A stretch of DNA of 64,000 nt, from positions 1-64,000 of the IMG/VR virus record IMGVR_UViG_3300045988_112496. One strand, 5' to 3'. How positions within the stretch are numbered: the stretch's first letter is position 1; each line of letters begins with the position of its first letter. This document shows, one piece after another, positions 1 to 36,950 of the stretch. A model generated the notes under the pieces. That model was not told where the DNA came from. It did not search any database and saw only the letters and a program-made list of their open reading frames with translations. Made by a program: the position numbers and the translations under genes. This DNA comes from a virus.

Positions 1-240
1 TGATGGTATATTGATGGATATAGGGAAGGGGTTGGTATAGGTACCACTTTAGAAAATTGGAGGCTCCATACAGTCCGGTAGTTATTATCTGTATATTATT
101 ATACCAATAGGCCATTAGGAGACTAGCAGGCTTTTATACCAATGCCTATAATGCCCGGAGGGCCCTGTATAGAGACATCGAGAACTAAGGCCTAAGGTAA
201 GCCTATGCCAAGTCCAATGATGGCCTACTGAGATAGGACA

Positions 241-274
241 TAAGAAAAGCCCAGTACCTAAGATAGGCTGGGCT
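241..274 (-). terminator. intrinsic terminator
   Basis: Stem AGCCCAG/CTGGGCT (248-254 / 268-274) followed on the minus strand by TTTTCTT. Confidence 0.7.
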
Positions 275-297
275 TATAAGGTAACATAGTTAGCGAT

Positions 298-654
298 TTA
301 GGATTCTCCTATGATAGTAATATATAAAGAGCCCATGTTATAGGTAGCCATAGGCATAGGTTGGGAATCATCCTGAGCAAGTAGTTCTGCTTCGTTTAGT
401 ATAGATTTTATTTGGGTATCTGTAAGAGCTTTGTTAGTTTGGGTATAATAGAAATTATGTATTGCTATGTCTTCGTTAAACTTGGAAGCCGAGTACCCTG
501 ATAAGGTAAAGCCTGGTATGAATATATCCAAGCTATTGATAAGATTCGCAAGGTATTCATAGATAGCCTGAGAATTAATTTCTGGGTCAATGTTTAAGGT
601 TGCATTTTGTTTAGTGAACCAGGTTGGGATTAATTTTGCTTTAATTGTTTTCAT
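298..654 (-). CDS. hypothetical early protein (118 aa)
   Basis: ORF 298..720 trimmed to the internal ATG at 654 (MKTIKAKL...), because 683-714 carries the -7/-33 promoter boxes. Terminator hairpin lies just downstream at 241-274. Confidence 0.6.
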   Translation of the reverse strand: MKTIKAKLIPTWFTKQNATLNIDPEINSQAIYEYLANLINSLDIFIPGFTLSGYSASKFNEDIAIHNFYYTQTNKALTDTQIKSILNEAELLAQDDSQPMPMATYNMGSLYITIIGES

Positions 655-682
655 ATCTATATAAATTTTAATTAGTACATTG

Positions 683-714
683 CAAATATAGATATTATAT
701 TTTAAATATGCAAA
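683..714 (-). promoter_or_regulatory. Bacteroidota-type promoter: -33 TTTG (711-714), 20-nt spacer, -7 TATATTTG (683-690)
   Basis: Minus strand reads GGATTTGCATATTTAAAATATAATATCTATATTTGCAATG, 29 nt before the ATG at 654. Confidence 0.7.
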
Positions 715-935
715 TCCCAATCTATTTTTATTAATCTTACTGAGGCCATTAATGGATAATGTCTTATAGCTCTAATACTCTAAATACGTATCTCTCTATC
801 AATACTCTCTCAAAAGAAGTATCTCTTCTAGAGCTTTAAAGTTTCTTTTTAATAAACTACAAGGGCCATTAATGGTATACTTACTAGTTTTAGGTACCTT
901 GAATGGCCTAAATCCTATTGCCTATTTATCTAAAA

Positions 936-1081
936 AGGTACCCCAAATTTAATAAATCCGAGAGCCATGAATGGTATATTAATTACCTTAATCCTAATAA
1001 ATCCTAACCAATATCTATATATAATATACTAATATAAAGGGCCATTAGGGGTCTAGGATTAAGGGGATTTAGGTACCCCAA
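936..1081. repeat. family C motif AGGTACCCCAA (two copies) plus further GGTACC palindromes
   Basis: AGGTACCCCAA at 936-946 and 1071-1081. GGTACC also at 40-45 and 893-898. Confidence 0.55.
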
Positions 1082-1331
1082 TAGGCTATTATTAGGAGCC
1101 TTTTAGGCAATGGGTTATAATGACCTAAGGCTATGAGACATATGTGTTAGATAGCTATAGAGTATAGTGGTTGTATAGTAGAAAGCCTCTGCCAGATCCC
1201 CTACCTCAAATTTTTCCGACCCCCGGAAGGCCCCAAAAGTAGATTGTATTATGTATATTGATTAGTATTATATTAGGTTGAAGGTTATATGTACCTTAGA
1301 TAAGTGTAGGTATATTATGTTACATAGTTAG

Positions 1332-1377
1332 GCCCAGTATGATTTTGTATTATATGTTCATACTGGGCTTTATTTGG
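1332..1377. terminator. 11-bp stem-loop with a T-tract on the plus side
   Basis: GCCCAGTATGA...TCATACTGGGC then TTTATTTGG on the plus strand. Shares GCCCAGTA with hairpin 248-274. Orientation and function uncertain. Confidence 0.35.
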
Positions 1378-1403
1378 TTATTTGTTTTGTTTGGGGTGGG
1401 TTG

Positions 1404-1592
1404 TTAGTAGGTTGGTATCCTTAGGATTAAGGTCTCTAATAGGATTAATAGGATTATCTGTAGGCTCTGTAAGGTTATGTATATGTATTTTTGTTTGTTG
1501 GTGGGGCTTGGTATTTGATGGTACCTCTTGCTTCTGTGTATTAGGCTTAATGAGGTATATATTATTAAGGATATGAGTAGTAGGATTTTCAT
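1404..1592 (-). CDS. questionable small hydrophobic ORF (62 aa)
   Basis: ATGA overlap with the upstream small ORF. However, its Leu/Ile-rich sequence is largely the translation of TAGGATTA repeats (1422-1456), so it may be non-coding. Confidence 0.2.
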   Translation of the reverse strand: MKILLLISLIIYTSLSLIHRSKRYHQIPSPTNKQKYIYITLQSLQIILLILLETLILRIPTY

Positions 1593-1753
1593 TTCTGTTT
1601 GGATTTTAATTTGTTTTGGGTACGTAGGTGCTTGTTGAAGGTTGCACCTGAATCTGTGTAGTAATTAGGATTTGGTTTACCTGGAGTAGGAAAGTGTTCA
1701 TTCCATTTATCCTGGTGAGGTATGTATACTTGGTTCTTGGATTTCTTTTTCAT
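1589..1753 (-). CDS. small ORF (54 aa, MKKKSKNQVYIPHQDKWNEHF...), not in ORF track
   Basis: Hand-translated. ATGA start/stop overlaps at both ends (1750-1753 and 1589-1592) suggest translational coupling. Confidence 0.4.
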   Translation of the reverse strand: MKKKSKNQVYIPHQDKWNEHFPTPGKPNPNYYTDSGATFNKHLRTQNKLKSKQK

Positions 1754-2007
1754 TTTGTTTCTCTGTTTAGTAGGGTATTTTTGAATCCAATTGGTATAAG
1801 CTCTTGGGTTTCTATGGTTACGGAGTCGAAGTAATTCTTTATACCTTTTATGTTTTTGAATTGTAATACTCCTCCATCGCCATAGGTAGCATTTACTTGG
1901 TTTATAAGGTCCTGATAAGCCTTGTCTTGATTATCTTCTAGTGAATGGTATATGTTTTCTACTTGGTTACCCTCTATGATTATTAAGGTTGTGATTTTTA
2001 GTTTCAT
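1750..2007 (-). CDS. hypothetical protein (85 aa)
   Basis: Minus-strand ORF with a 4-nt overlap with the upstream gene. Confidence 0.6.
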   Translation of the reverse strand: MKLKITTLIIIEGNQVENIYHSLEDNQDKAYQDLINQVNATYGDGGVLQFKNIKGIKNYFDSVTIETQELIPIGFKNTLLNRETK

Positions 2008-2267
2008 TTTCCGTAATGTTTTAGTTCTTGGTTATACTCTGGGTATTTGTTCTCGTAGTAGTCATAGAGATATTGATATTCGTCATCTCCTGACCAGCAG
2101 TCGAGGAAGTAATCGTATTGGTCCTCGGTTGCTTGGGATGGGTGTATATGCAATGTATACTTGCAGTAGTGTTCCCATACTGTTTTAGGTTGGAATTTAT
2201 TAGTTGGGAACGCCATGACTACTAGAGCCATAGCAATTGATGTTAGGATTATAAGTTTTGTTCTCAT
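2004..2267 (-). CDS. hypothetical protein with N-terminal signal/TM segment (87 aa)
   Basis: Hydrophobic N-terminus MRTKLIILTSIAMALVVMAF. Tiles with neighbours. Confidence 0.6.
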   Translation of the reverse strand: MRTKLIILTSIAMALVVMAFPTNKFQPKTVWEHYCKYTLHIHPSQATEDQYDYFLDCWSGDDEYQYLYDYYENKYPEYNQELKHYGK

Positions 2268-2271
2268 TTGA

Positions 2272-2811
2272 TTATAGGTTATTGAGTTTCATTGATAATA
2301 AATCGGATTGGAGTTTCAGAGGTTCTGAATAAAGGTTATCGGTGTCATTGTAGAGATTTTCGTAATATTCAATGAATTCGCAATGTTCTTCTTCGTTGAA
2401 GTTATCTATGTAGAATCTAAGTTGTTCCATGATTCTTGGTCGGTATTCCTTCATGGCATCGGTACCAAGGATTGATACACCGTATAGTACCATGTCCAGT
2501 TCATCGATATTATAATCGAAGTATTGGTCATCCCCTCCAGCAAGTAAATTCATTTGGTCAAGGATAGCATTTATGTCCTTGATAAGAGATTCTTTGTCAT
2601 TGTAAGCATATAACCAGAAGATACCAGTTAGTCCTTGGTTTTCTAGGATTTCGTAATTGGTATCTTCTTCGTTTTCGATATTGATTTCGAATTCCTGTGA
2701 AGCATGTTTCATTGGCATTTGGCCTTGGAGTGATACAATGTGTAAAGGATTCATTTTGATTGCCTTAAGTAATACGGCAGATGATGCGATTTCGATAGGA
2801 GTTGTTTTCAT
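2272..2811 (-). CDS. hypothetical acidic early protein (179 aa)
   Basis: Long minus-strand ORF, strongly Asp/Glu-rich. Confidence 0.7.
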   Translation of the reverse strand: MKTTPIEIASSAVLLKAIKMNPLHIVSLQGQMPMKHASQEFEINIENEEDTNYEILENQGLTGIFWLYAYNDKESLIKDINAILDQMNLLAGGDDQYFDYNIDELDMVLYGVSILGTDAMKEYRPRIMEQLRFYIDNFNEEEHCEFIEYYENLYNDTDNLYSEPLKLQSDLLSMKLNNL

Positions 2812-2829
2812 AATGTTATAATGTTTTGT

Positions 2830-2851
2830 GGGAGGGTTTGTATTCCCTCCC
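2830..2851 (-). terminator. GC-rich stem-loop after gene 2862..3104
   Basis: GGGAGGG-tttgtatt-CCCTCCC. No clear U-tract. Confidence 0.4.
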
Positions 2852-2861
2852 GGATTAGTAA

Positions 2862-3104
2862 TTAAATTTCGTTAGCGATTCGATGATTGAATTTGTCTTG
2901 GTCTTCGTTAGATGGCCAGTCCATGATTTCCTCCATGTATGATACTATGTAATCGTAGAGTTGATTGTCTTCCGGATTGTTTTGTCCGTTACGAAGGATT
3001 TCTTGTTCGCATTCCCGTAGGATTTGGTCATAATGATAAGCAAATATTGTTTGTAAACGTTTTGCAGTACCAGTTCGTTTTTGGAGGATTTCTAATGTTG
3101 TCAT
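2862..3104 (-). CDS. hypothetical protein (80 aa)
   Basis: ORF downstream of promoter 3167-3198. GC stem-loop follows at 2830-2851. Confidence 0.6.
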   Translation of the reverse strand: MTTLEILQKRTGTAKRLQTIFAYHYDQILRECEQEILRNGQNNPEDNQLYDYIVSYMEEIMDWPSNEDQDKFNHRIANEI

Positions 3105-3166
3105 AATGTTAATGTTAATGACCTTGGTTGAGGTCGGTTAATAATATTATTTTATTTTTCACATTG

Positions 3167-3198
3167 CAAATATACTTATAATTATATTAATGTGCAAT
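3167..3198 (-). promoter_or_regulatory. Bacteroidota-type promoter: -33 aTTG, 20-nt spacer, -7 TATATTTG
   Basis: AATTGCACATTAATATAATTATAAGTATATTTGCAATG on the minus strand. Confidence 0.6.
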
Positions 3199-3216
3199 TA
3201 TATTATAACTTATATA

Positions 3217-3585
3217 TTAACCTTCTGAGGCCCCTAAATTCAACCTTGAAAGCCTTTCAATCTCATTAATATTGGCCATATACTCATCCATATTGGTGCA
3301 GTGTAGTACGTTGGTGGCAAGTATCCATTTGATATGATATTTAATTCCTTCCTCGTATCCTTGGTCATTATTAAGGAATTTTGCAAGTTCGATTCGGTCA
3401 GCAGAGTATATGAGAGTTATTTCTTGAGAATAAGATGCCTCACGTTCGCATTGTAGTGAGCGATAAATATCTGTATTATCTGTCACTGTAGCCATAAGTT
3501 CATAAAAGAATAATATCTGATTGATAGGTATATTGGCTACCCATTCCCATCCGATTGGGTATTGGTTGTTAAGTATCTGTATCAT
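3217..3585 (-). CDS. hypothetical protein (122 aa)
   Basis: Minus-strand ORF with a 1-nt overlap with the upstream gene. Confidence 0.65.
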   Translation of the reverse strand: MIQILNNQYPIGWEWVANIPINQILFFYELMATVTDNTDIYRSLQCEREASYSQEITLIYSADRIELAKFLNNDQGYEEGIKYHIKWILATNVLHCTNMDEYMANINEIERLSRLNLGASEG

Positions 3586-3833
3586 TATTCTAAAGGTATT
3601 AAGTCTATGATTTGAATATCTGTATAAGGCATTCTTAGAAGTTCCCTGAGAAGTTGCTTAGTTAGGTATACGTGCAAATGGTTAGGATTAAGCTGAACTG
3701 CTGGATAACGTAGGTACGGAGTTAGCTCCTCAGTCCTGTAGGTTATAATCAGTTCTTCGCAAAATTTTAATTCCTGTACATCGAAGGACACTAAGAATTT
3801 TCTTTGTTCTAGCATATTAATAGTATTAAGCAA
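3585..3833 (-). CDS. hypothetical protein (82 aa)
   Basis: Minus-strand ORF. Confidence 0.6.
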   Translation of the reverse strand: MLNTINMLEQRKFLVSFDVQELKFCEELIITYRTEELTPYLRYPAVQLNPNHLHVYLTKQLLRELLRMPYTDIQIIDLIPLE

Positions 3834-3873
3834 TGAGTATTCTCATAAGTTAAAGGTTCTTTGCTAGTAGGCT

Positions 3874-3908
3874 GGGAGGATGCACCCATTATTAGGATAA
3901 TTCCTCCC
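3874..3908 (-). terminator. stem-loop after gene 3930..4253
   Basis: GGGAGGA...TCCTCCC with a 21-nt loop. Confidence 0.35.
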
Positions 3909-3929
3909 ATGACCAAGATAAGTATAATA

Positions 3930-4253
3930 TTAGGCTTCATTTGATTGTGAATATGAATCCCATAGGTCCTCGAAGAAATAGGATAATGTATCATCCCATG
4001 AATCGTATCCATCCAGGTTGTATTCGCTTACGAATAACATCATTAGGTCTCCGAAGAATAATTGAAAGACTAATCGTTCCAGTTCTTCTTCCCGTTTGCA
4101 GAGTCGGTTATATTCTTCGTCTGTAAATTTAATATCGTCATTCTCATATAGGTCTTCGCCTATTTTGTGAAGTTCCTGAATATAGGTGTTCAGTTTGTTA
4201 AAGTCCTCCTCTGAGTGAGTTTCCTTAAATTTATTATAAAGTTCTGTTGCCAT
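3930..4253 (-). CDS. hypothetical acidic protein (107 aa)
   Basis: Minus-strand ORF followed by stem-loop 3874-3908. Confidence 0.65.
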   Translation of the reverse strand: MATELYNKFKETHSEEDFNKLNTYIQELHKIGEDLYENDDIKFTDEEYNRLCKREEELERLVFQLFFGDLMMLFVSEYNLDGYDSWDDTLSYFFEDLWDSYSQSNEA

Positions 4254-4255
4254 AG

Positions 4256-4633
4256 TTATTTCTTTGTTAAAGGTTGAGCAATTACTGATATAAATCCCTC
4301 AGGGTATTGGGTATAGAAGAATTGATACCCAGGTTCATGATTAGGCAAGAATACATCAAAGATATTCTTGAGCAATGGGTATAGTTTCCATTGATATTCC
4401 TCAAGGAAAGTATTCCAAGCAGCAATTTCCTCTTCGGTATTATAATTAGCCGATAGTTGAATGTGGAATTTGTCTGCCTCAGGTACAAATAAGTTAGTGA
4501 CTACCTCAATCTCGTTGGATTCCTTTTTGTATTGGGTAATTGGATGCCAAATACCTTCGTTTTTCCATTGATTGAGCTGGAATATGGTCATCCCAGATTC
4601 AAGTAAGTTGGTAAGTTTGTAAATGTTAACCAT
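4256..4633 (-). CDS. hypothetical protein (125 aa)
   Basis: ORF downstream of promoter 4679-4710. Confidence 0.7.
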   Translation of the reverse strand: MVNIYKLTNLLESGMTIFQLNQWKNEGIWHPITQYKKESNEIEVVTNLFVPEADKFHIQLSANYNTEEEIAAWNTFLEEYQWKLYPLLKNIFDVFLPNHEPGYQFFYTQYPEGFISVIAQPLTKK

Positions 4634-4678
4634 GTTGTTGTCTATTTTAAAATGAATAATATATTTTATATCACACTA

Positions 4679-4710
4679 CAAATATAAGAAATAATTAAAT
4701 AATATGCAAA
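4679..4710 (-). promoter_or_regulatory. Bacteroidota-type promoter: -33 TTTG, 20-nt spacer, -7 TATATTTG
   Basis: CCTCAGTTATATTTGCATATTATTTAATTATTTCTTATATTTGTAG on the minus strand. Confidence 0.7.
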
Positions 4711-4722
4711 TATAACTGAGGA

Positions 4723-4758
4723 AAGGGTAGGCTCTGTGTAAGTTAGAGTCCTACCCTT
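4723..4758 (-). terminator. long stem-loop after gene 4779..5177
   Basis: AAGGGTAGGCTCT...AGAGTCCTACCCTT. CCTCAG follows on the minus strand. Confidence 0.6.
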
Positions 4759-4778
4759 AAAGATATGAAAACAACTGG

Positions 4779-5177
4779 TTAATGTTCCGATATAGCTATA
4801 TCTTCTAATAATCTATTAAGGATTTCAACTTTCTGTTCTTCTGATAGGCCATTAAGGGATTTCGAGATATTCTCTTTTATTACCTCTCCAAGAAATCTTT
4901 GATAAGAGATTACCATAGTTGAAGCATTTATAGAGACAGGTATAAGTATATTCATCTGAGTCCTATGGTCTTCAATTTGGTCTAATAAATTGGCAAGCTC
5001 TTCTTTATGGTCTATTGAATGTTTGACAATAAGTTTACATACTCTTTCTTGACTGGTGGGCGAATCTTCATCGATGAGGTTTAGTATGGTATTATATGTA
5101 TCCATATCTACCTCTAAGGGCATACCCATAAGTTGAGGCTTAGGCCCTGGATTCATAATTTCAATTATAATTCTCAT
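4779..5177 (-). CDS. hypothetical protein (132 aa)
   Basis: Minus-strand ORF followed by hairpin 4723-4758. Confidence 0.7.
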   Translation of the reverse strand: MRIIIEIMNPGPKPQLMGMPLEVDMDTYNTILNLIDEDSPTSQERVCKLIVKHSIDHKEELANLLDQIEDHRTQMNILIPVSINASTMVISYQRFLGEVIKENISKSLNGLSEEQKVEILNRLLEDIAISEH

Positions 5178-15365: not shown

Positions 15366-15863
15366 TTACTTCTTTCCTTTTTTGCCTTTACCTTTAGCTT
15401 CTTTCTTTGCCGGAAGTTTGAGACCCAATTCTTTGGCAATTGCTTTGCGAAGTTTTTCGATATCATCTTCATCAAAGTCATCCGGGTCTGTTTCAAGGTC
15501 TTTGTCATCGCAAACATCTTCCAGTTCTTCGAAGTCCATTTCAGCAAGAGCTTCACCGGTCAATTCCTCTTCGTCCTCATCCTCATCTTCTTCATCGTCG
15601 TCTTCGTCTTCCTCGTCATCGGAATCATCATCCTCGTCCTCATCGTCTTCGTCTTCCTCGTCCTCATCACCTTCGTCTTCCTCGTCCTCATCTTCTTCCT
15701 CTTCTGAAGCAAAGAATTCTTTGGCTTCTTCGGCAGTCAGCATAATTGGAGCCGGGATAATTTTGATTGAGCCATCCTCGTAAATGATGATGATTGCACC
15801 ATTAATCTCTTTGCGAGATACTTCTTTTAACTCTACCTTTTTGGTTTCTTTTTTCTTAGCCAT
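15366..15863 (-). CDS. poly-acidic protein (165 aa) with a 47-residue Asp/Glu tract and Lys-rich termini
   Basis: The tract EEEEDEDEEDEGDEDEEDEDDEDEDDDSDDEEDEDDDEEDEDEDEEE is 45 D/E out of 47 residues. Hairpin at 15320-15348 lies downstream. Confidence 0.7.
   Translation of the reverse strand: MAKKKETKKVELKEVSRKEINGAIIIIYEDGSIKIIPAPIMLTAEEAKEFFASEEEEDEDEEDEGDEDEEDEDDEDEDDDSDDEEDEDDDEEDEDEDEEELTGEALAEMDFEELEDVCDDKDLETDPDDFDEDDIEKLRKAIAKELGLKLPAKKEAKGKGKKGKK
15555..15712. repeat. cryptic GAN-triplet repeat encoding the poly-Asp/Glu tract
   Basis: Plus strand is (CTC/ATC/GTC/TTC)n with reiterated 'cgtcttcgtcttcctcgtc' blocks. Confidence 0.7.
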
Positions 15864-15901
15864 TTTCGTAAATGTTTAAATGTTAATAATCAATAGTTAT
15901 A

Positions 15902-16141
15902 TCACTCTGTTATAAGTTTCTTGTATTTTCTTTCGCTTCCCGTAAGATAAGCAAATGCAATATTATATTGTTTTACTTCATCAATTACGGTCTTTAGTTC
16001 TTCTTGAGATTCTATCTTTACTTCCTCGGTATTGATAATCTCATCCGTATCATTATGGGTATTAATCTTAAAAGTTTTACCCATAAACGGATTTAATTGT
16101 TTATGTACCTTTACTTCCGGTACTGGGTTTTTAGTTTCCAT
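15902..16141 (-). CDS. hypothetical protein (79 aa)
   Basis: Minus-strand ORF. Confidence 0.55.
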   Translation of the reverse strand: METKNPVPEVKVHKQLNPFMGKTFKINTHNDTDEIINTEEVKIESQEELKTVIDEVKQYNIAFAYLTGSERKYKKLITE

Positions 16142-16766
16142 TGCTGTATTTAATTTTAATTATCCCAGGAATACCAACCTTACCAAATACTTCGGTATAA
16201 GATTTATATTTTGGGTTTTGCATTGTTTTATAGTTATCAGCTAATCTCATGGGAAATACCCAATATTCATTTTCTAGCATCCTGTTAGTCATAATGTAGG
16301 CATATTTACTTCTCATCCTATATTTGCTTACTGGAGTAAACCCTTGAAATCTTAAAGCTTTTACCAGATACCTTTCTTTTGGTTGCCATCCCAAATGATT
16401 TAGGGATTCATTATAAAAGATATCTATCATATCCCTTTGTGCTTTGATAAATAGTACTTTCTGTATAGGTATATCTAACTTCTTTCTTAAATACAAAGCC
16501 AAAGAACATACCAATGGAGGATATTGCAAAGAAAGGATGTTATATTTATGCTTCTCCTCTTGACTCAGCCTGTTGTAAATCCTGTAAGATAGCAGAACGG
16601 ATTTGTATTCTCTTCTTCCGGATATACTTGGAAGATATGCCTTCCCGTTGTCCATACAATTTTTGTGAATATCTTTCATTGAATACCTTCTTTCCTTTTG
16701 ATTTGAAGACCCGGTGCATTTGAACCATAAACCTTCGTCTTCTATGTTTATCAATTTTATATTCAT
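16131..16766 (-). CDS. hypothetical protein (211 aa), overlaps the upstream ORF by 221 nt in the +1 frame
   Basis: Long ORF. The true start is uncertain (internal Met at codons 30 and 38). Confidence 0.55.
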   Translation of the reverse strand: MNIKLINIEDEGLWFKCTGSSNQKERRYSMKDIHKNCMDNGKAYLPSISGRREYKSVLLSYRIYNRLSQEEKHKYNILSLQYPPLVCSLALYLRKKLDIPIQKVLFIKAQRDMIDIFYNESLNHLGWQPKERYLVKALRFQGFTPVSKYRMRSKYAYIMTNRMLENEYWVFPMRLADNYKTMQNPKYKSYTEVFGKVGIPGIIKIKYSNGN

Positions 16767-17724: not shown

Positions 17725-18714
17725 CTATTTCTTTTTATAAAAAGCTGAGGTATCTGATACACGTTCAGCAGCCGTAGATTTAGGTTTTTTCTTTCTTCGT
17801 TTTTTAACCTTATCGGCGTTGAAGGCCATATCAAGTTGTTTAATACTGAATTCTATATTATTCACTTGATTATAGTTTACTGCTTTTTCCACGCAGCATC
17901 TGTACTCAGGCCAGAAACGTTGTCCCAATTTTACATCTACGGTTTTAATCATAAATTTAGATACCATGAAGCCAAAAGTATCTGCATCATCTTTCTTCTC
18001 AAACACATACATATAGAATCTACTAAATTCACTAACAACCTCATCTAAAGGTCTTACTGGCATTAGTAAATATCCATCTGTATATAATTCTTCGGATATT
18101 AAGCATACCCAGTATTTCTTCTTACCAGGTTTTACTTTATATCTAAACCTTTCTTTTAGTTTAGTGTGCATCCATTCAGGTACCCGATTTAAAAGATACT
18201 TAATGTATATTTTGTCCTTCTTATTCAACCTCCTTTTAAACGCAGAAGGCTGTTGTAACATTCTTGGAAGAATTCTAAAATTATTCCATCTATCAAACTC
18301 TAGAATTAACCTCATTGAATCTAAATCCCATTGGTCATCAGATTCCTTAAGTCTTTTCATATTCCTTTCGATATTGCTGTTACTTACTTTTAAGATTAAG
18401 TTAGAAGAGTCTCCAGTATATAGACTAGCTTCTTTTCTACTTAATCTTCTTTCGATACATCCTTCAATAAAATCACAAAAGCTTCTTTCACAAGGGCAGT
18501 CAGGTCGAAAAATAGAAGTATGTAACTCAAAAAAATCAGAGAATAATCTGAAGAACTTTTCTGACCTTTCTCTGATTTCTAAATACTTGTAATGTGACAA
18601 CTTTAAAATTTCACCAGCTTCCCAGGAAGATTTACTTTCGGATAATTGAAGGAATAAAGACTGTCTTTCAATTTCTGTTAAACAGTCCCAAGCTTTCTTC
18701 TGAGCATCATTCAT
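17725..18714 (-). CDS. putative transcription regulator with N-terminal sigma-region-4/LuxR-like HTH (329 aa)
   Basis: 'LTEIERQSLFLQLSESKSSWEAGEILKLSHYKYLEIRERSEKFF' resembles the LTxRE...G.S..EIA..L..S..TV HTH pattern. Confidence 0.4.
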   Translation of the reverse strand: MNDAQKKAWDCLTEIERQSLFLQLSESKSSWEAGEILKLSHYKYLEIRERSEKFFRLFSDFFELHTSIFRPDCPCERSFCDFIEGCIERRLSRKEASLYTGDSSNLILKVSNSNIERNMKRLKESDDQWDLDSMRLILEFDRWNNFRILPRMLQQPSAFKRRLNKKDKIYIKYLLNRVPEWMHTKLKERFRYKVKPGKKKYWVCLISEELYTDGYLLMPVRPLDEVVSEFSRFYMYVFEKKDDADTFGFMVSKFMIKTVDVKLGQRFWPEYRCCVEKAVNYNQVNNIEFSIKQLDMAFNADKVKKRRKKKPKSTAAERVSDTSAFYKKK

Positions 18715-28049: not shown

Positions 28050-28259
28050 TTATGTTGTCATAGTATCCTCTTTCTTCACCTTGGTTGGTGATTTTGGATT
28101 TTCTTTATGATGTAAGTATCTATTACATCCCGGGCACCTTACTAATTTACAATCTGCAAAGGTAGATGAATCTACTTCTGAATAATCATATTCGAATTCA
28201 CAATCACAATATGGGCATTTAGCTCGCCATATCGTGGGTCCGCTCAAAATCTTTTTCAT
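28050..28259 (-). CDS. zinc-ribbon protein (69 aa)
   Basis: CPYC...CPGC pairs. Confidence 0.55.
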   Translation of the reverse strand: MKKILSGPTIWRAKCPYCDCEFEYDYSEVDSSTFADCKLVRCPGCNRYLHHKENPKSPTKVKKEDTMTT

Positions 28260-30510
28260 AAGCCTTCATTTGTTTATTAAACCTTTCTTTAAATTGCTTG
28301 ATGTGGATATGTTTATATTTCTTATGTTCAGCCATATATTCCTCTACTGAGAAATCTGGTTGTAACATCTTACGATAATCATACCCTGGAATGAATGGTA
28401 ATTCCTCTGCCATAGTTCTACCAATGGTAAAGTCCATATCCATATCAACATCATCAACTTGAAATCCGAAATATCTTTTAGTACTTGGATTACGTAGGAT
28501 ATTCCAGATTGTATATACAGTCCATGTATTAATATCTTGAGGTTTAGAATACATATATACAGCATCATGTACTGTACAAGCTTCTTTCATCATAGGCAGT
28601 TTACCTTGTCTCATTAACCAATAAACGAGGATAGCTCCAAAATTAGTCATATTTGCTGCAGCACCTTGACATGGGAAATTAAGACCTAAACGAATTGCAT
28701 AAGCTACTTCTTGCTTATCATTTGAATATATTTGTGGGAGTCTTCGTTTAGTACCAAATAACTGAGTATAATACCCATGTTTACGAAGGAATTTCTCTTG
28801 TTTCTCTTTAAACTTCCTAATCTTAGGGTGTTGACCAAAGAATACTTCCATTTCCTTTGCTGCTTCTTCTGGTGTAACTATAATACCAGCTTTTGGGTCT
28901 GATAATTTTACTGCTAGCAATTTATTACCGATTCCATAAATAAGTCCAAAAGCAATTTGTTTAGCTTGCTTTCTCCTTACCTTCCATAATTTATAATCGG
29001 GATGTGTTTCATCTTCATAAGCTTTACTTGCTTCTTCGATTGATACACCATATTTTGCTGCTGCTATACCAAGGTGAGGGTCTACTCCCTTTGCAAAAGC
29101 TTCCAAATAAGTTTCATCACCAGATAAATGAGCCATCATTCTTAATTCTGCTTGAGAATAGTCAAAGGCCATATATAGATAACCCGGAGGAGCAACTAAT
29201 TGTTTCTTGATATTAGGGTCTACGGATGTTTTTGGTATCTGCTGCATATTTGGGTCTGCAGAACTAAACCGATTAGAATCGGTACCATGTATATTATATC
29301 TACCATGTAATCGAGAATCATCCTGTACTTTTTCCCACCATCCATAAATATAGGTCTTATACATTTTCTCTAAACCTCTTAATTCTAAGAGCTTATCAAG
29401 AAATATTGCCTTTGGAGATTCGGGGTCTTTTACTGTTAACCTTAACTCGGTTAAAGTATCTTCATCGGTACTTGGTTTACCAGATTCATTATCTTTAATT
29501 ACTGGGAACTTAAACCCAATATCTGAATACATTAACTGAGGTAAATCAACTGGACTACCCAGATTAACTGGTCTTATAAGTTCTTGTTCTTTCTTAGTAG
29601 TAAATACTCCTGCACGAATATTCGATATCTTCTGCTCCCTTGATGCTATCTTACGTTTATCTTTTGGGTCATTATAATCCAGTTCTTCAAGTTCTGCTTT
29701 GATTGATTCGATATATCTTTCAATTTTACCCTGATTGTATTTCTTTGTGAACTTCTTTACCCTTGGTAAATCATAAATTGCTTGTCTAGCAGCATCAATC
29801 TTAGGTTTATATTCCTCAAGTAATTTCTTATTGAAATCTCTATCAAGGTATAATCCTTCTTTCTCTACCGAAGTTAATACTCGAGAATTACACATGAACA
29901 AATTACGGAATACCGAATACATTTTTAAGTCAATTAACTTCTTCTCAAAGAATATCATTAATCGTAAAGTAAAGTCGGTATCTTGACAACCATATTTACA
30001 TAAAGGGTCTAATTCCTTTTTATCCCAAGGTATCTTATCGAACTTATCTTGCTTTTCATAATCTCCATATTCAGGTAAATACCTTCTAACCATATCTTTT
30101 AGTCCATGAGGTTTTTCTTCATTGAGAACATATTTTGCAAGCATACCATCAAGACATGTACCCCTATAATAAATATGATACTTCTGATTAATCTGGTCAT
30201 CAAATTTCCAGTTCCATGCAACCTTTACAATATCATAATTCTCAATAATCTCCTCTCCAAACTTCCTTAACATCTTCTTCCAATTCCATCCTGGAGAAGT
30301 ATATTCTTTTGTTTGGAAATGGTCTAAGGGTATAGAAGCACCAAACCCTGGCATCCAAGATACAGAGAGAATTGTGGGCTTAAAACTTTTGTTGTAGATT
30401 GGTTCAGCATTAGTTTCATAGTCACAGCAAGCATAACCAGTTGCTTTACAACAAGCAATTAGCTTCTTGAGTTCTCTTTTGTTCTTAATTATTTTATATC
30501 TTGTTTCCAT
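28219..30510 (-). CDS. family A DNA polymerase with 3'-5' exonuclease domain (763 aa)
   Basis: ExoI 'CDYETN'. 'TDSNRFSSADPNMQQIP'. Motif A 'DYSQAELRMMAH'. Motif B 'RRKQAKQIAFGLIYG'. Motif C 'VHDAV'. Confidence 0.95.
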   Translation of the reverse strand: METRYKIIKNKRELKKLIACCKATGYACCDYETNAEPIYNKSFKPTILSVSWMPGFGASIPLDHFQTKEYTSPGWNWKKMLRKFGEEIIENYDIVKVAWNWKFDDQINQKYHIYYRGTCLDGMLAKYVLNEEKPHGLKDMVRRYLPEYGDYEKQDKFDKIPWDKKELDPLCKYGCQDTDFTLRLMIFFEKKLIDLKMYSVFRNLFMCNSRVLTSVEKEGLYLDRDFNKKLLEEYKPKIDAARQAIYDLPRVKKFTKKYNQGKIERYIESIKAELEELDYNDPKDKRKIASREQKISNIRAGVFTTKKEQELIRPVNLGSPVDLPQLMYSDIGFKFPVIKDNESGKPSTDEDTLTELRLTVKDPESPKAIFLDKLLELRGLEKMYKTYIYGWWEKVQDDSRLHGRYNIHGTDSNRFSSADPNMQQIPKTSVDPNIKKQLVAPPGYLYMAFDYSQAELRMMAHLSGDETYLEAFAKGVDPHLGIAAAKYGVSIEEASKAYEDETHPDYKLWKVRRKQAKQIAFGLIYGIGNKLLAVKLSDPKAGIIVTPEEAAKEMEVFFGQHPKIRKFKEKQEKFLRKHGYYTQLFGTKRRLPQIYSNDKQEVAYAIRLGLNFPCQGAAANMTNFGAILVYWLMRQGKLPMMKEACTVHDAVYMYSKPQDINTWTVYTIWNILRNPSTKRYFGFQVDDVDMDMDFTIGRTMAEELPFIPGYDYRKMLQPDFSVEEYMAEHKKYKHIHIKQFKERFNKQMKAYEKDFERTHDMAS

Positions 30511-34884: not shown

Positions 34885-36363
34885 TCATAAAGAATGAATA
34901 GGATGATTCTTCCATATCTTCTCTAACAGAATAACTTTCAATTCTTGTTTTTGATAATATTGCTTCCTATGTTTACCATGTCTGTTAAGATAGGGACCAG
35001 GATAGTGTAAGTCATCCAGGTAAACCTTTTTCTTTGAGGAATCAGTTCTTACCAAACGACCCAGGAACTGAATAGATTTTTCCTGGCTATCCATTGATGC
35101 TGCATTAAGTAAATACCTAAGCTTAGGAAAGTTTTTACCTCGAGCAATGATTGTAGTTGATACCAGGATATCTATCTTGCCTTCCCTAAAATCTTTCATT
35201 ATTTGTTGTCTTATCTTTGAATTAGTATCTACATGCACACAGGCAATATTATATTTGCTCCCTAGTTTCTTTTTAAAGTATTTGTATAAATTCTCACAAT
35301 GTGCAATATACTTGCATACTACGAGTGCAGGATATCTGCCCTGTTTGATATTCCATTTAAGCCGAGCATAAACCATTTTCCTTGCATACTTATTAAAGGT
35401 AATAGAATCATCATAAATATCCTTATAAGATACTTCCTCAGATTCCCAATTACCATACCAAGGTTTACTTGGAACCATCTTTACAATTGTACGAGTTGAA
35501 TAACCTTTCTTAATAGAATCCTTGAGTTTAAACTCTGCAAGTACCTTACCAAAGAAACATTCGAGATTTGTATTCTTTACTTTATCCTTAGCAAGCTTAC
35601 TCATATAAATGGTACCAGATAATCCAATACGAACCCTGGTATTAAATAAACGAGTAAGTACATTTTGATATTGCTTACTACCTGCTTGGTCAGCCTCATC
35701 CACCAAAACCATATCTATCTTAGATAATTCTCCTTGATAGAATTTCATATTACGAGAAATAGATTGAACCATACCGATAGTAAAGTTACTCCAATTTAAT
35801 ACTTTACCTTGAACAAAGGTGATCTGTTCTCCAGGTAGGTATTTCTTAAATTCATCTCTAGCTTGATTTAACCAGTCAGAATCATTAGTTATAAGCAAAG
35901 TCTTTAACTGCTTCTTATAGGATAAATAAAGAGACGACATGATAAGAGTTTTACCTGCATTAACTGTGTAATCTAAAACTCCAATTTGAAAAGAAGCTTT
36001 ACCTACCCTATTATTAATTACTGCTTTAACTGCCTTCTCTTGTTCTGGTCTTAATTTATATTCTCCTATCCTTGTAACAACTTTACTGACTTTTGGTAAA
36101 GGTTGTCTCATATCTACAACTTTAGGTTTAATTCCATACTCAATACATTTATCATATACTGCAGGAAGTAAACCTATCTTAAATTCACCATGCTTATTAA
36201 TATAATGAATCTTACCATCCCAGTTCTGCATACCTCTTTGCCTGGTACGTAAGTAAAAGGCATTTGGATGACGAATGGCAAACTCGATATAGAGTTTCTG
36301 TGCGAACTTAAGAGGTAAGTCCAGTTCGCACATATTCCCATTCTGTATAATTATCCTACTCAT
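34885..36363 (-). CDS. SF2 DEAD-box-type DNA helicase (UvsW/type III res-like) (492 aa)
   Basis: Motif I 'NAGKT', II 'VDEAD', III 'SGT', VI 'QFLGRLVR'. Confidence 0.85.
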   Translation of the reverse strand: MSRIIIQNGNMCELDLPLKFAQKLYIEFAIRHPNAFYLRTRQRGMQNWDGKIHYINKHGEFKIGLLPAVYDKCIEYGIKPKVVDMRQPLPKVSKVVTRIGEYKLRPEQEKAVKAVINNRVGKASFQIGVLDYTVNAGKTLIMSSLYLSYKKQLKTLLITNDSDWLNQARDEFKKYLPGEQITFVQGKVLNWSNFTIGMVQSISRNMKFYQGELSKIDMVLVDEADQAGSKQYQNVLTRLFNTRVRIGLSGTIYMSKLAKDKVKNTNLECFFGKVLAEFKLKDSIKKGYSTRTIVKMVPSKPWYGNWESEEVSYKDIYDDSITFNKYARKMVYARLKWNIKQGRYPALVVCKYIAHCENLYKYFKKKLGSKYNIACVHVDTNSKIRQQIMKDFREGKIDILVSTTIIARGKNFPKLRYLLNAASMDSQEKSIQFLGRLVRTDSSKKKVYLDDLHYPGPYLNRHGKHRKQYYQKQELKVILLEKIWKNHPIHSL

Positions 36364-36950
36364 TTGATAATTACAGTTACACCTTTAGATTCATTAGTTG
36401 AAATACCCATAGCTTCTCGGAGAAGTTTGATATGGTGTTCCTCATCAGCCACCAACTTATTTAAGAAATACATCACATCATCATAATCTGCCCGGTCATC
36501 GTAAACAGCAAGGTGATTCATGATAGTTCTGTAGTAATCGATTGTTTCTTGTTCTGAACTCAAAGCAACCTTTAGTGCATCATTTCGAGTACTACCAATT
36601 TCAATCTTAGGGTTAATCTCCATACTACTGTAATCCTCATGGGGATTAGCTTTCTGTAAGAAATCAGATAACTTGTCATAATGTCTCATTTCTACCAAAC
36701 CTATACCCAACATCAGTTCTGCAATATCATCAAACCGGGATGACTGTTGAGTATACATAAGGATTGCTGTAGTCTCTGAAAAACTGGCAGTCTTAAGTAT
36801 ATGCTCAAACATCTTAACGATATCTTCCGGCCAAGGTTCGATATCATTGAAATCTGGATAGTCTACTGACTGGTCCGAATACTTGAGGACATCAATAAAA
36901 GCATTAGCTGCATCCTCTACTCTGTTGCCCATAAATTTTAAAGCTTTCAT
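36360..36950 (-). CDS. ferritin-like / Mn-catalase-like di-metal carboxylate protein (196 aa)
   Basis: Four-helix pattern E...'VEMRH'...E...'DEEHH' (two ExxH motifs). Confidence 0.55.
   Translation of the reverse strand: MKALKFMGNRVEDAANAFIDVLKYSDQSVDYPDFNDIEPWPEDIVKMFEHILKTASFSETTAILMYTQQSSRFDDIAELMLGIGLVEMRHYDKLSDFLQKANPHEDYSSMEINPKIEIGSTRNDALKVALSSEQETIDYYRTIMNHLAVYDDRADYDDVMYFLNKLVADEEHHIKLLREAMGISTNESKGVTVIIK

Follow-up and report, generated by a model that had tools for sequence, protein, structure and literature searches.

At the start of the window analysed here (the whole stretch of 64,000 nucleotides (nt) of the virus record IMGVR_UViG_3300045988_112496) lies the visible part of a non-coding island of ~1.4-1.7 kb, placed at the end of a long one-directional gene array. 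The island is real, conserved across the phage family and cis-acting, and it frames a slot in which one gene is swapped for another. Its sequence boxes are absent elsewhere in the 73.7 kb over which the scans for uniqueness and stability extend. Together they therefore make up a cis site that is present once, as opposed to a family of promoters; a role as general phage promoters is discarded, since the boxes are missing from the rest of the genome. The boxes are putative docking sites for sequence-specific DNA-binding proteins rather than RNA elements, and the role that we consider the most probable, while holding it tentatively, is that of a nucleoprotein assembly site of the replication-origin type. 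Relatives were collected as 80 loci anchored on a methyltransferase gene and 80 more anchored on the terminase gene TerL.

A conserved non-coding island around an exchangeable gene

Read in the coding orientation, the gene array ends with two small open reading frames (ORFs) of 54 and 62 amino acids (aa). These are followed by a hairpin (T1), a first non-coding segment (NC1, 1403..655), a host-type promoter, the gene for a 118-aa protein that occupies the slot, a second hairpin (T2) and a second non-coding segment (NC2) of ~650 nt, of which the first 297 are inside the window. The island runs on for ~350 nt past the window start, up to the tandem promoters of a gene encoding a 160-aa protein.

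In ~60 relatives both non-coding segments can be aligned, with 70-88% identity, while the gene between them often cannot. The conservation of NC1 is bimodal, with near-invariant boxes set against fast-changing AT-rich spacers; the island as a whole has about a dozen short boxes that are constant, or almost so, in the family. Invariant columns make up 64% of the core (1180..1038) and 60% of the hairpin T1 with its adjoining 13-mer, compared with 58% of the 54-aa ORF and 27% of the 62-aa ORF. In the spacers of NC1 41-52% of columns fall below 50% identity, and there are many indels. The earlier note on this DNA had proposed that conservation of motifs rather than spacers be checked in related phages; over the ~60 relatives a part of its motifs is invariant where the spacers are not, while other motifs are variable.

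The boxes keep a constant order. This begins with the GC box, a variable segment of ~40 nt, the ACTATAC repeats (10-11 bp), AGCT(A/C)TCT, CTAAAAGG and GGGTACC, and continues in the closer clades with a TAATGGCC-type box, the AT tract and a short-repeat array. The order was seen with nhmmer and by eye as far as the group of MT121964, and in weaker form in distant clades. In the clades that share both the box order and the TATTATATA tract, TerL is ~72-89% identical. The MT121964 group shares the synteny, and its island too is dense in GGCC; MT121964.1 itself gave no match to the core, and its relatives L103, L104 and L110 were matched. A prophage origin of the island (i.e. an attP site) is rejected, the invariant 21-mer being absent from 185,579 species genomes.

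The gene within the island is an exchangeable accessory cassette, the promoter and terminator of which are conserved. The slot holds a member of a 138-aa family at 40 loci, of the 118-aa family at 24 and a 110-aa ORF at one, and it is empty at two. The exchange is precise at the ORF borders, and among the relatives scanned the same type of promoter stands before every type of cassette. In one relative (L038) block i has been deleted together with the slot promoter and gene, and the remainder of the island is kept. The island must therefore be more than the operator of that gene.

The 118-aa protein has only 6 homologue clusters in 5.8 billion proteins. Its AlphaFold2 model (pLDDT 91) gave weak GHKL-like matches (TM-score 0.4-0.5), and contains neither a helix-turn-helix (HTH) nor another DNA-binding fold. 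The protein is replaced or absent where the boxes are kept, so that this and the predicted fold make it an unlikely binder of the repeats. A second promoter motif (TTTG-N21-TAATTTTG, 607-639) lies antisense in the 5′ end of the 118-aa gene on the plus strand and is directed into the island. It is present only in phages that carry the 118-aa cassette.

Positions 1-297 and 655-1403 have TAA in every frame, and are non-coding even under recoding of TAG or TGA. Recoding cannot therefore hide a gene, and an alternative genetic code that conceals ORFs is rejected. A small ORF in the core (ATG TCT CAT..., 8 codons) is also dismissed, its start codon being lost in several relatives.

Several claims of the earlier note bear on this organization. 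Its own promoter and own terminator for 298..654 were both recovered on the minus strand, the former as TTTG-N20-TATATTTG at 714..683 and the latter as the hairpin at 248-274 followed by a T-run. It had extended a non-coding region of ~1.5 kb over 1-1600; the lack of ORFs holds for 1-297 and 655-1403, whereas 1404-1753 is coding. The 62-aa and 54-aa ORFs found there are joined via ATGA overlaps, and are intact in 53/60 and 47/60 relatives respectively. Since this segment is coding, half of the copies of the motif TAGGATT (family B of the three families A, B and C distinguished in the note) are codons. The copies at 1422-1672, including a tandem pair, had been counted as non-coding and sit in coding DNA (encoding ILLILL). 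The sequence at the window start that was thought to be a truncated copy of family A is not one; position 1 is a scaffold gap at which nothing is missing, and not an end of the genome. The label of HTH protein given to the product of 17725..18714 is unsupported, as Pfam finds no domain there.

We note separately that in one clade the 62-aa miniprotein is swapped for an unrelated 68-aa protein in the same layout.

Boxes and repeats of the island

The positions of the elements and motifs are listed in the table below. What is conserved in family A is the asymmetric sequence TAATGGCC, always on the coding strand, and not the palindrome that had been proposed. It is present in four copies, all on the coding strand and three of them conserved, but spaced 120-634 bp apart; a look-alike at 963-978 is degenerate and variable. 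Other repeats are closely spaced. ACTATAC is found in 2-4 copies with a period of 10-11 bp, and in relatives family B is an array of varying make-up, in which TAGGNAT is repeated 2-5 times every 7-10 nt, right after the A/T tract. Family C corresponds to GGTACCTAAA, which together with TAATGGCCCTT makes a composite repeat of ~50 nt in two copies; GGTACCTAAA is found only at 1077 and 898 in the 73.7 kb, and the two copies can be aligned. Exact CTAACTATGT likewise occurs only twice, at 293 and 1331. Further invariant boxes are ACTATACA, AGCTATCTAACACAT and GGGTACCT(AAATCC). A search of IMG/VR with GGCCATTAATGGTATA returned 11 matches, all unrelated and attributable to chance.

Among all 30-bp windows of the 73.7 kb only two are less stable than the AT-rich tract at 1011-1038 (top 0.02%), in which no promoter motif occurs. 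The TATTATATA tract is at the same place in all the clades inspected.

Elements of the island and its borders, and positions of the recurrent motifs (window coordinates; minus strand is coding)
Position	Strand	Element	Conservation or remark
1..247		start of NC2; TAATGGCC at 110-117, GGTACC at 40-45, four GGCC	no ORF; conserved over 59 relatives
248..274	-	terminator hairpin T2 of slot gene, GCCCAG...CTGGGC then TTTTCTTAT	conserved
281..293	-	13-mer CTAACTATGTTAC; direct repeat of the box at 1319-1331	conserved
298..654	-	slot gene, 118 aa	predicted (model) alpha/beta sandwich
683..714	-	Bacteroidetes-type slot promoter: TTTG 714..711, 20-nt spacer, TATATTTG 690..683	regular-expression scan
740..772	-	block i: GCTATAAGACATTATCCATTAATGGCCTCAGTAAG; TAATGGCC box at 744-751, 29 nt upstream of -33 element	mean column identity 0.84
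862..912	-	block g: GGCCATT..GGTACCTAAA-N21-TAATGGCCCTT; second copy of the 1035-1092 unit	31% invariant columns
913..1010		TAGGATT/TAGGNAT-type repeats (990-1010, 911-917); degenerate family A 963-978; family C 936-946	fast-evolving; 48% of columns <50% identity, many indels
1011..1038		28-nt tract, 26 A/T, contains TATTATATA	candidate DNA-unwinding element
1038..1180	-	core: ACTATAC x2 (10-11 bp period), AGCTATCTAACAC, invertible AGCCTTAGGTC, ATTGCCTAAAAGG, GGGTACCTAAATCC, AATCCTAGACCCCTAATGGCC	invariant
1181..1226	-	GC box CCGGGGGT (1219-1226), then ~40-nt segment	box invariant; segment swapped for unrelated haplotypes
1227..1317		AT-rich, indel-rich spacer	variable; 41% of columns <50% identity
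1319..1368	-	hairpin T1 (1332-1368, GCCCAGTATGA...TCATACTGGGC) then 13-mer CTAACTATGTAAC (1331..1319)
1404..1592	-	62-aa miniprotein; two hydrophobic helices around a basic loop (transmembrane-basic-transmembrane)	outside island
1589..1753	-	basic 54-aa protein	outside island
746, 866 only		perfect palindrome CCATTAATGG	2/2 window sites in island
110, 744, 864, 1040		GGCCATTA	4/6 window sites; 0.1 expected
below 1700		TAGGATT	7 forward and 3 reverse sites
936, 1071		AGGTACCCCAA
249, 1332/1361		GCCCAGTA	common to both hairpins

The motif positions given in the earlier note proved correct on re-count. In the island GGCCATTA, CCATTAATGG, TAGGATT, GGTACC and GGCC exceed expectation; TCTAGA, AGGCCT and GGGCCC, thought to be dense here as well, are not enriched in the island. 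For GGCC 10 of the 68 sites fall in 1046 nt (1.6% of the window), where 1.1 would be expected (P 2e-7). This is 9-fold over the share of length and about 3-fold over the local dinucleotide expectation. Four of the 18 GGTACC sites lie in the island (0.29 expected), as do 14 of 137 TTAGG/CCTAA sites, and a single span of 1.4 kb has 10 TAGGATT, compared with a maximum of 5 in 200 simulations. Segment 655-1403 contains 71 repeated 8-mers and 37 repeated 9-mers, against 38+-7 and 14+-5 in dinucleotide shuffles (0/300 reaching these values); the excess of repeated words was smaller in coding controls. In the islands of several clades GGCC and GTAC are 2.5-3.5 times the local dinucleotide expectation, while CTAG, TTAA, AGCT and CCGG are not raised.

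The constraint on these sequences likely acts on double-stranded DNA. No match to Rfam was found at the gathering level or at E up to 5, and no tRNAs were found. The z-scores of folding in sliding windows are near 0 except at the two hairpins, reaching -3.7 to -4.6 at T1 and -2.1 to -2.3 at T2 (161-280). The stems of T1 are invariant and its loop is variable, with stem pairs kept in 58-59 of 59 sequences, and it has a T-rich tail on the plus strand only. Applied to 59 close sequences, RNAalifold returned the T1 hairpin, a small number of short invariant helices and nothing else, and counted 0 compensatory pairs; invariant helices of this kind carry no information. With 41 diverse sequences the energy of the consensus fold was about -4 kcal/mol for either strand. 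No conserved promoter is found in front of the core, and a plus-strand RNA started at the promoter-like motif within 298..654 is rejected, the motif being confined to one type of cassette. An imperfect palindrome of ~13 nt, AGCCTTAGGTC, centred on CCTNAGG (~1116-1130), is inverted in about a third of the relatives. Such inversion between haplotypes agrees with a dyad site in DNA, and not with a motif of single-stranded RNA.

Possible roles of the island

The phage encodes a DnaB-like helicase, a Toprim primase, PolA, a gp32-like single-stranded DNA-binding protein (SSB) and a RecA-like protein, and so needs a start site of its own. If the island is that site, the parts of the assembly would be the GC box, the short repeats of helical period, the four same-orientation copies of TAATGGCC, the two of GGTACCTAAA, the unstable AT tract and the TAGGNAT array. 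Proteins bound at the boxes would open the neighbouring AT tract, and the opened tract would then allow loading of the DnaB-like helicase and the primase of the phage; the strong flanking promoters might assist. The tract at 1011-1038 corresponds to the AT-rich unwinding element that lies adjacent in an origin.

A number of observations weigh against an origin. None of the features of the island is peculiar to origins. The TAATGGCC boxes are separated by 120-630 bp without phasing, there is no DnaA-box-like site or cluster in the island, and no initiator domain was found among the neighbouring or replication-module proteins scanned. The replication genes are 17-40 kb from the island, and further very AT-rich sites lie beside the helicase and primase genes. 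The mean identity of the island (76-88%) is not above that of conserved genes, and the GC skew shifts gradually with no switch at the island. Moreover, replication machinery of the T4 type can initiate via R-loops at promoters or by recombination, without a dedicated site.

A transcription-control hub comes second, only a little less probable than the assembly site and held as tentatively. The boxes would then be operators of one or several regulators from phage or host, timing the slot promoter, the tandem promoters before the 160-aa gene and any read-through out of the gene array. In favour are the positions of one TAATGGCC box, which lies upstream of the slot promoter at 29 nt from its -33 element, and of a TTATGGCC that lies upstream of the corresponding MT121964 promoter at a distance of 22 nt; the two copies of the perfect palindrome CCATTAATGG are of a kind typical of dimeric regulators. 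Moreover, the island is bounded by a terminator-like hairpin and three promoters of host type, and the slot promoter is kept before all types of cassette. Yet the best-conserved blocks (1038-1180 and 1219-1226) are 330-540 bp from the nearest promoter, and ~1 kb is well above the size that known operators need. Retention of the island after loss of the slot promoter and gene is also at odds with a hub, no regulator gene was identified, and the model of the slot protein lacks a DNA-binding fold. A transcript from the island itself is improbable. Non-coding RNA might be made as a plus-strand species ending at 1332-1368 or as processed 3′ ends of the upstream operon; the one-sided T-rich tail of T1, the full promoter motif at ~607-639 that is directed into the island on the plus strand, the presence of all TAATGGCC boxes on one strand and the uniqueness of the invariant blocks would agree with this. 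They have to be set against the lack of an Rfam match, of covariation and of z-scores away from 0 outside the hairpins, and against the restriction of the plus-strand promoter to the 118-aa cassette, with none conserved before the core.

We regard it as unlikely that the island serves DNA entry, concatemer processing or packaging, i.e. that it is an analogue of the T5 injection stop, a pac site or a terminal region. Its order is conserved among relatives where the neighbouring ORFs are not, it follows a block of small early-type genes, and assemblies break inside it (the scaffold gap at position 1 and the ends of MT121964). Breakpoints within the island are, however, at many different coordinates, and the scaffold gap hides no sequence. 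Contig ends of the methyltransferase-anchored loci are even over the 10 kb upstream, with 9/33 in the 2.5 kb around the island and about 8 expected. Physical termini could not be read from contig ends, as a clustering seen in near-complete contigs vanished once all 33 truncated loci were counted. The complete contigs of ~87.5 kb begin at arbitrary places, TerL is ~7.5 kb away behind a gap of its own and not adjacent as it would be to a pac or cos site, and DnaA boxes are lacking. The island might also have no dedicated function, its blocks being homology anchors kept uniform by frequent recombination between co-infecting relatives, which would also drive the exchange of cassettes. The variable segments do exist as few discrete haplotypes reshuffled between invariant blocks, the slot is swapped exactly at the ORF borders, and the unit of NC1 plus gene has the hairpin and 13-mer on both sides. 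We think this a poor prospect. Recombination alone does not account for boxes of 21 nt that are identical in 59 genomes when spacers at 10 nt from them are saturated with change, nor for a box order kept in clades too diverged for recombination. The module of hairpin and 13-mer has only two copies. The general reading of the earlier note, that the island is an array of protein-binding-site-like repeats with an origin, packaging or regulatory role, is strengthened by these comparisons, and the packaging or terminal variant of it is somewhat weakened.

The assembly-site reading can be compared with iteron-type origins such as lambda ori, SPP1 oriL/oriR, P1 oriR and RK2 oriV. The island resembles these in being a unique non-coding site with short repeats (some of helical period), an AT tract, a GC-rich box and promoters nearby. 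Unlike them its repeats are shorter (7-10 nt) and mostly spaced irregularly, and it has neither DnaA boxes nor an adjacent initiator gene. In phage T5 a conserved untranslated repeat region of 1.2-1.7 kb holds the injection stop signal; it lies in the long terminal repeat and has eight DnaA boxes (bioRxiv 10.1101/866236). By analogy of layout this T5 region (untranslated repeat region 3) is the closest architectural counterpart in the literature. Both have long untranslated repeats and palindromes in an order that is conserved while ORFs vary, and both come after small early genes. By contrast with T5, the island has no DnaA boxes or sign of fixed ends, and its phage is a myovirus of Bacteroidetes.

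Exchange of an accessory ORF between relatives, within a frame of conserved promoter and stem-loop, also recalls the promoter-early stem-loop (PeSL) cassettes of T4-type phages. According to Arbiol et al. (in 2010), these are reportedly many dispersed units of promoter and stem-loop of ~50 nt. The island differs in offering one slot only, next to which a further ~750 nt of conserved non-coding DNA remain even where the ORF is absent. Nor are there many copies here; the module of hairpin and 13-mer is found twice, and the other matches to GCCCAGTA are not hairpins.

In every clade the terminase genes are closely preceded by the gene of a divergent C5 cytosine methyltransferase (15566-16558 in the contig L014; Pfam E 1e-11), for which no relative was found in PDB at E 0.001. 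As all clades have the enzyme, there is no variation in its presence to set against the density of GGCC. Clusters of GATC are present at oriC of E. coli and at the pac site of P1. The island is like these in the many-fold local enrichment of a 4-bp palindrome of methyltransferase type (here GGCC) in a phage that encodes a DNA methyltransferase. It is unlike them in that its link with methylation is only conjectural, and the C5 enzyme is without a PDB relative at that threshold. On this analogy the GGCC and GGTACC clusters could conceivably be the targets of the methyltransferase, or of a reader of its mark, forming a methylation-gated switch that acts once per cycle, e.g. on the start of replication. 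We consider this a long shot.

The phage and the surroundings of the island

Nearly all the genes of the window are on the minus strand. They include structural genes (tail sheath, tape measure and baseplate) and replication genes, the latter adding an SF2 helicase, FEN and an SbcCD-like nuclease to the proteins listed above. As a separate observation, the coding-strand GC skew is negative (down to -0.3) over 1400-5000 of the window, in the last ~5 kb of the gene array, where gene orientation is unchanged.

Nucleotide searches of GenBank phages gave no match to the window. By protein the nearest records are metagenomic phages from human faeces, of which MT121964.1 is colinear with the window and has a PolA of 59% identity. 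The exact 118-aa protein of 298..654 is present on contigs of ~87.7 kb from gut metagenomes. The phage is a gut myovirus of ~87.7 kb, and in gene order, source and host-type promoters it matches the description of 'Flandersviridae'. In this candidate family of the human gut, structural genes with a tail sheath are followed by DnaB, DnaG and PolA and then by ~20 kb of ORFs without known function, and the hosts are Bacteroides and Parabacteroides (Benler et al. 2021, PMC8008677). The window has the colinear order and the promoter motifs of Bacteroidetes.

Members of 'Flandersviridae', to which this phage appears to belong, are reportedly detected in human guts about as often as crAss-like phages; their description rests on metagenomic assemblies only, and the defining paper makes no mention of non-coding regions or origins (PMC8008677). 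Phage elements of this kind are familiar, and the island adds one more of them, from a group of gut phages that is important but uncultured; it is of use in annotation and in designing experiments. Mapped across the family and with its invariant boxes defined, it is a concrete starting point in the search for the origin or for a master control site. The map can serve in the design of replicating or reporter constructs, and in choosing safe and unsafe places for engineering. The slot is a single hot spot of accessory-gene exchange behind a constant host-type promoter, so that it offers a natural insertion site, and it is a likely locus of conflict between phage and host. Should the island prove an origin or operator region of the ordinary sort, annotation would benefit rather than new biology. 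A methylation-gated switch, if true, would be the first described in one of the most prevalent phage families of the human gut.

Position 1 of the window corresponds to position 4788 of the ENA scaffold L015, next to a run of N at 4789-4887 that is a gap in this scaffold. In L014, a gap-free megahit contig of a phage that is 99.5% identical, no sequence is missing at the window start. Another contig (L016) has a tandem duplication of 20 nt (CCATCAYTACCTWTTCA...) at exactly this spot.

Beyond NC2 two tandem promoters of Bacteroidetes type (TTTG-N19-TATCTTTG, ~100 nt apart) precede the lysine-rich 160-aa gene. This ORF lies in a segment of 22-25% GC (L014 10700-11487), has no family match and is kept in relatives; the composition of the segment looks foreign to the phage. 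There follow a block of seven genes on the opposite strand, a muramidase, a protease-like gene and the C5 methyltransferase, and then a non-coding gap of 637 nt, an 83-aa gene and TerL. The gap is separate from the island, and TerL (identified as terminase by PHROG) starts ~7.5 kb downstream of the latter.

Two further features of the replication module may be mentioned. The PolA gene at 28219-30510 is unbroken, and in MT121964.1 (51168-54428) and MT121960.1 it is matched as 2-3 pieces with ~1 kb extra. This suggests an inserted element in those two phages (i.e. an intron, intein or homing endonuclease). A rubrerythrin/ferritin-like gene is found at 36360-36950; gut phages with genes for iron sequestration and oxidative stress have been described (Benler et al. 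2021).

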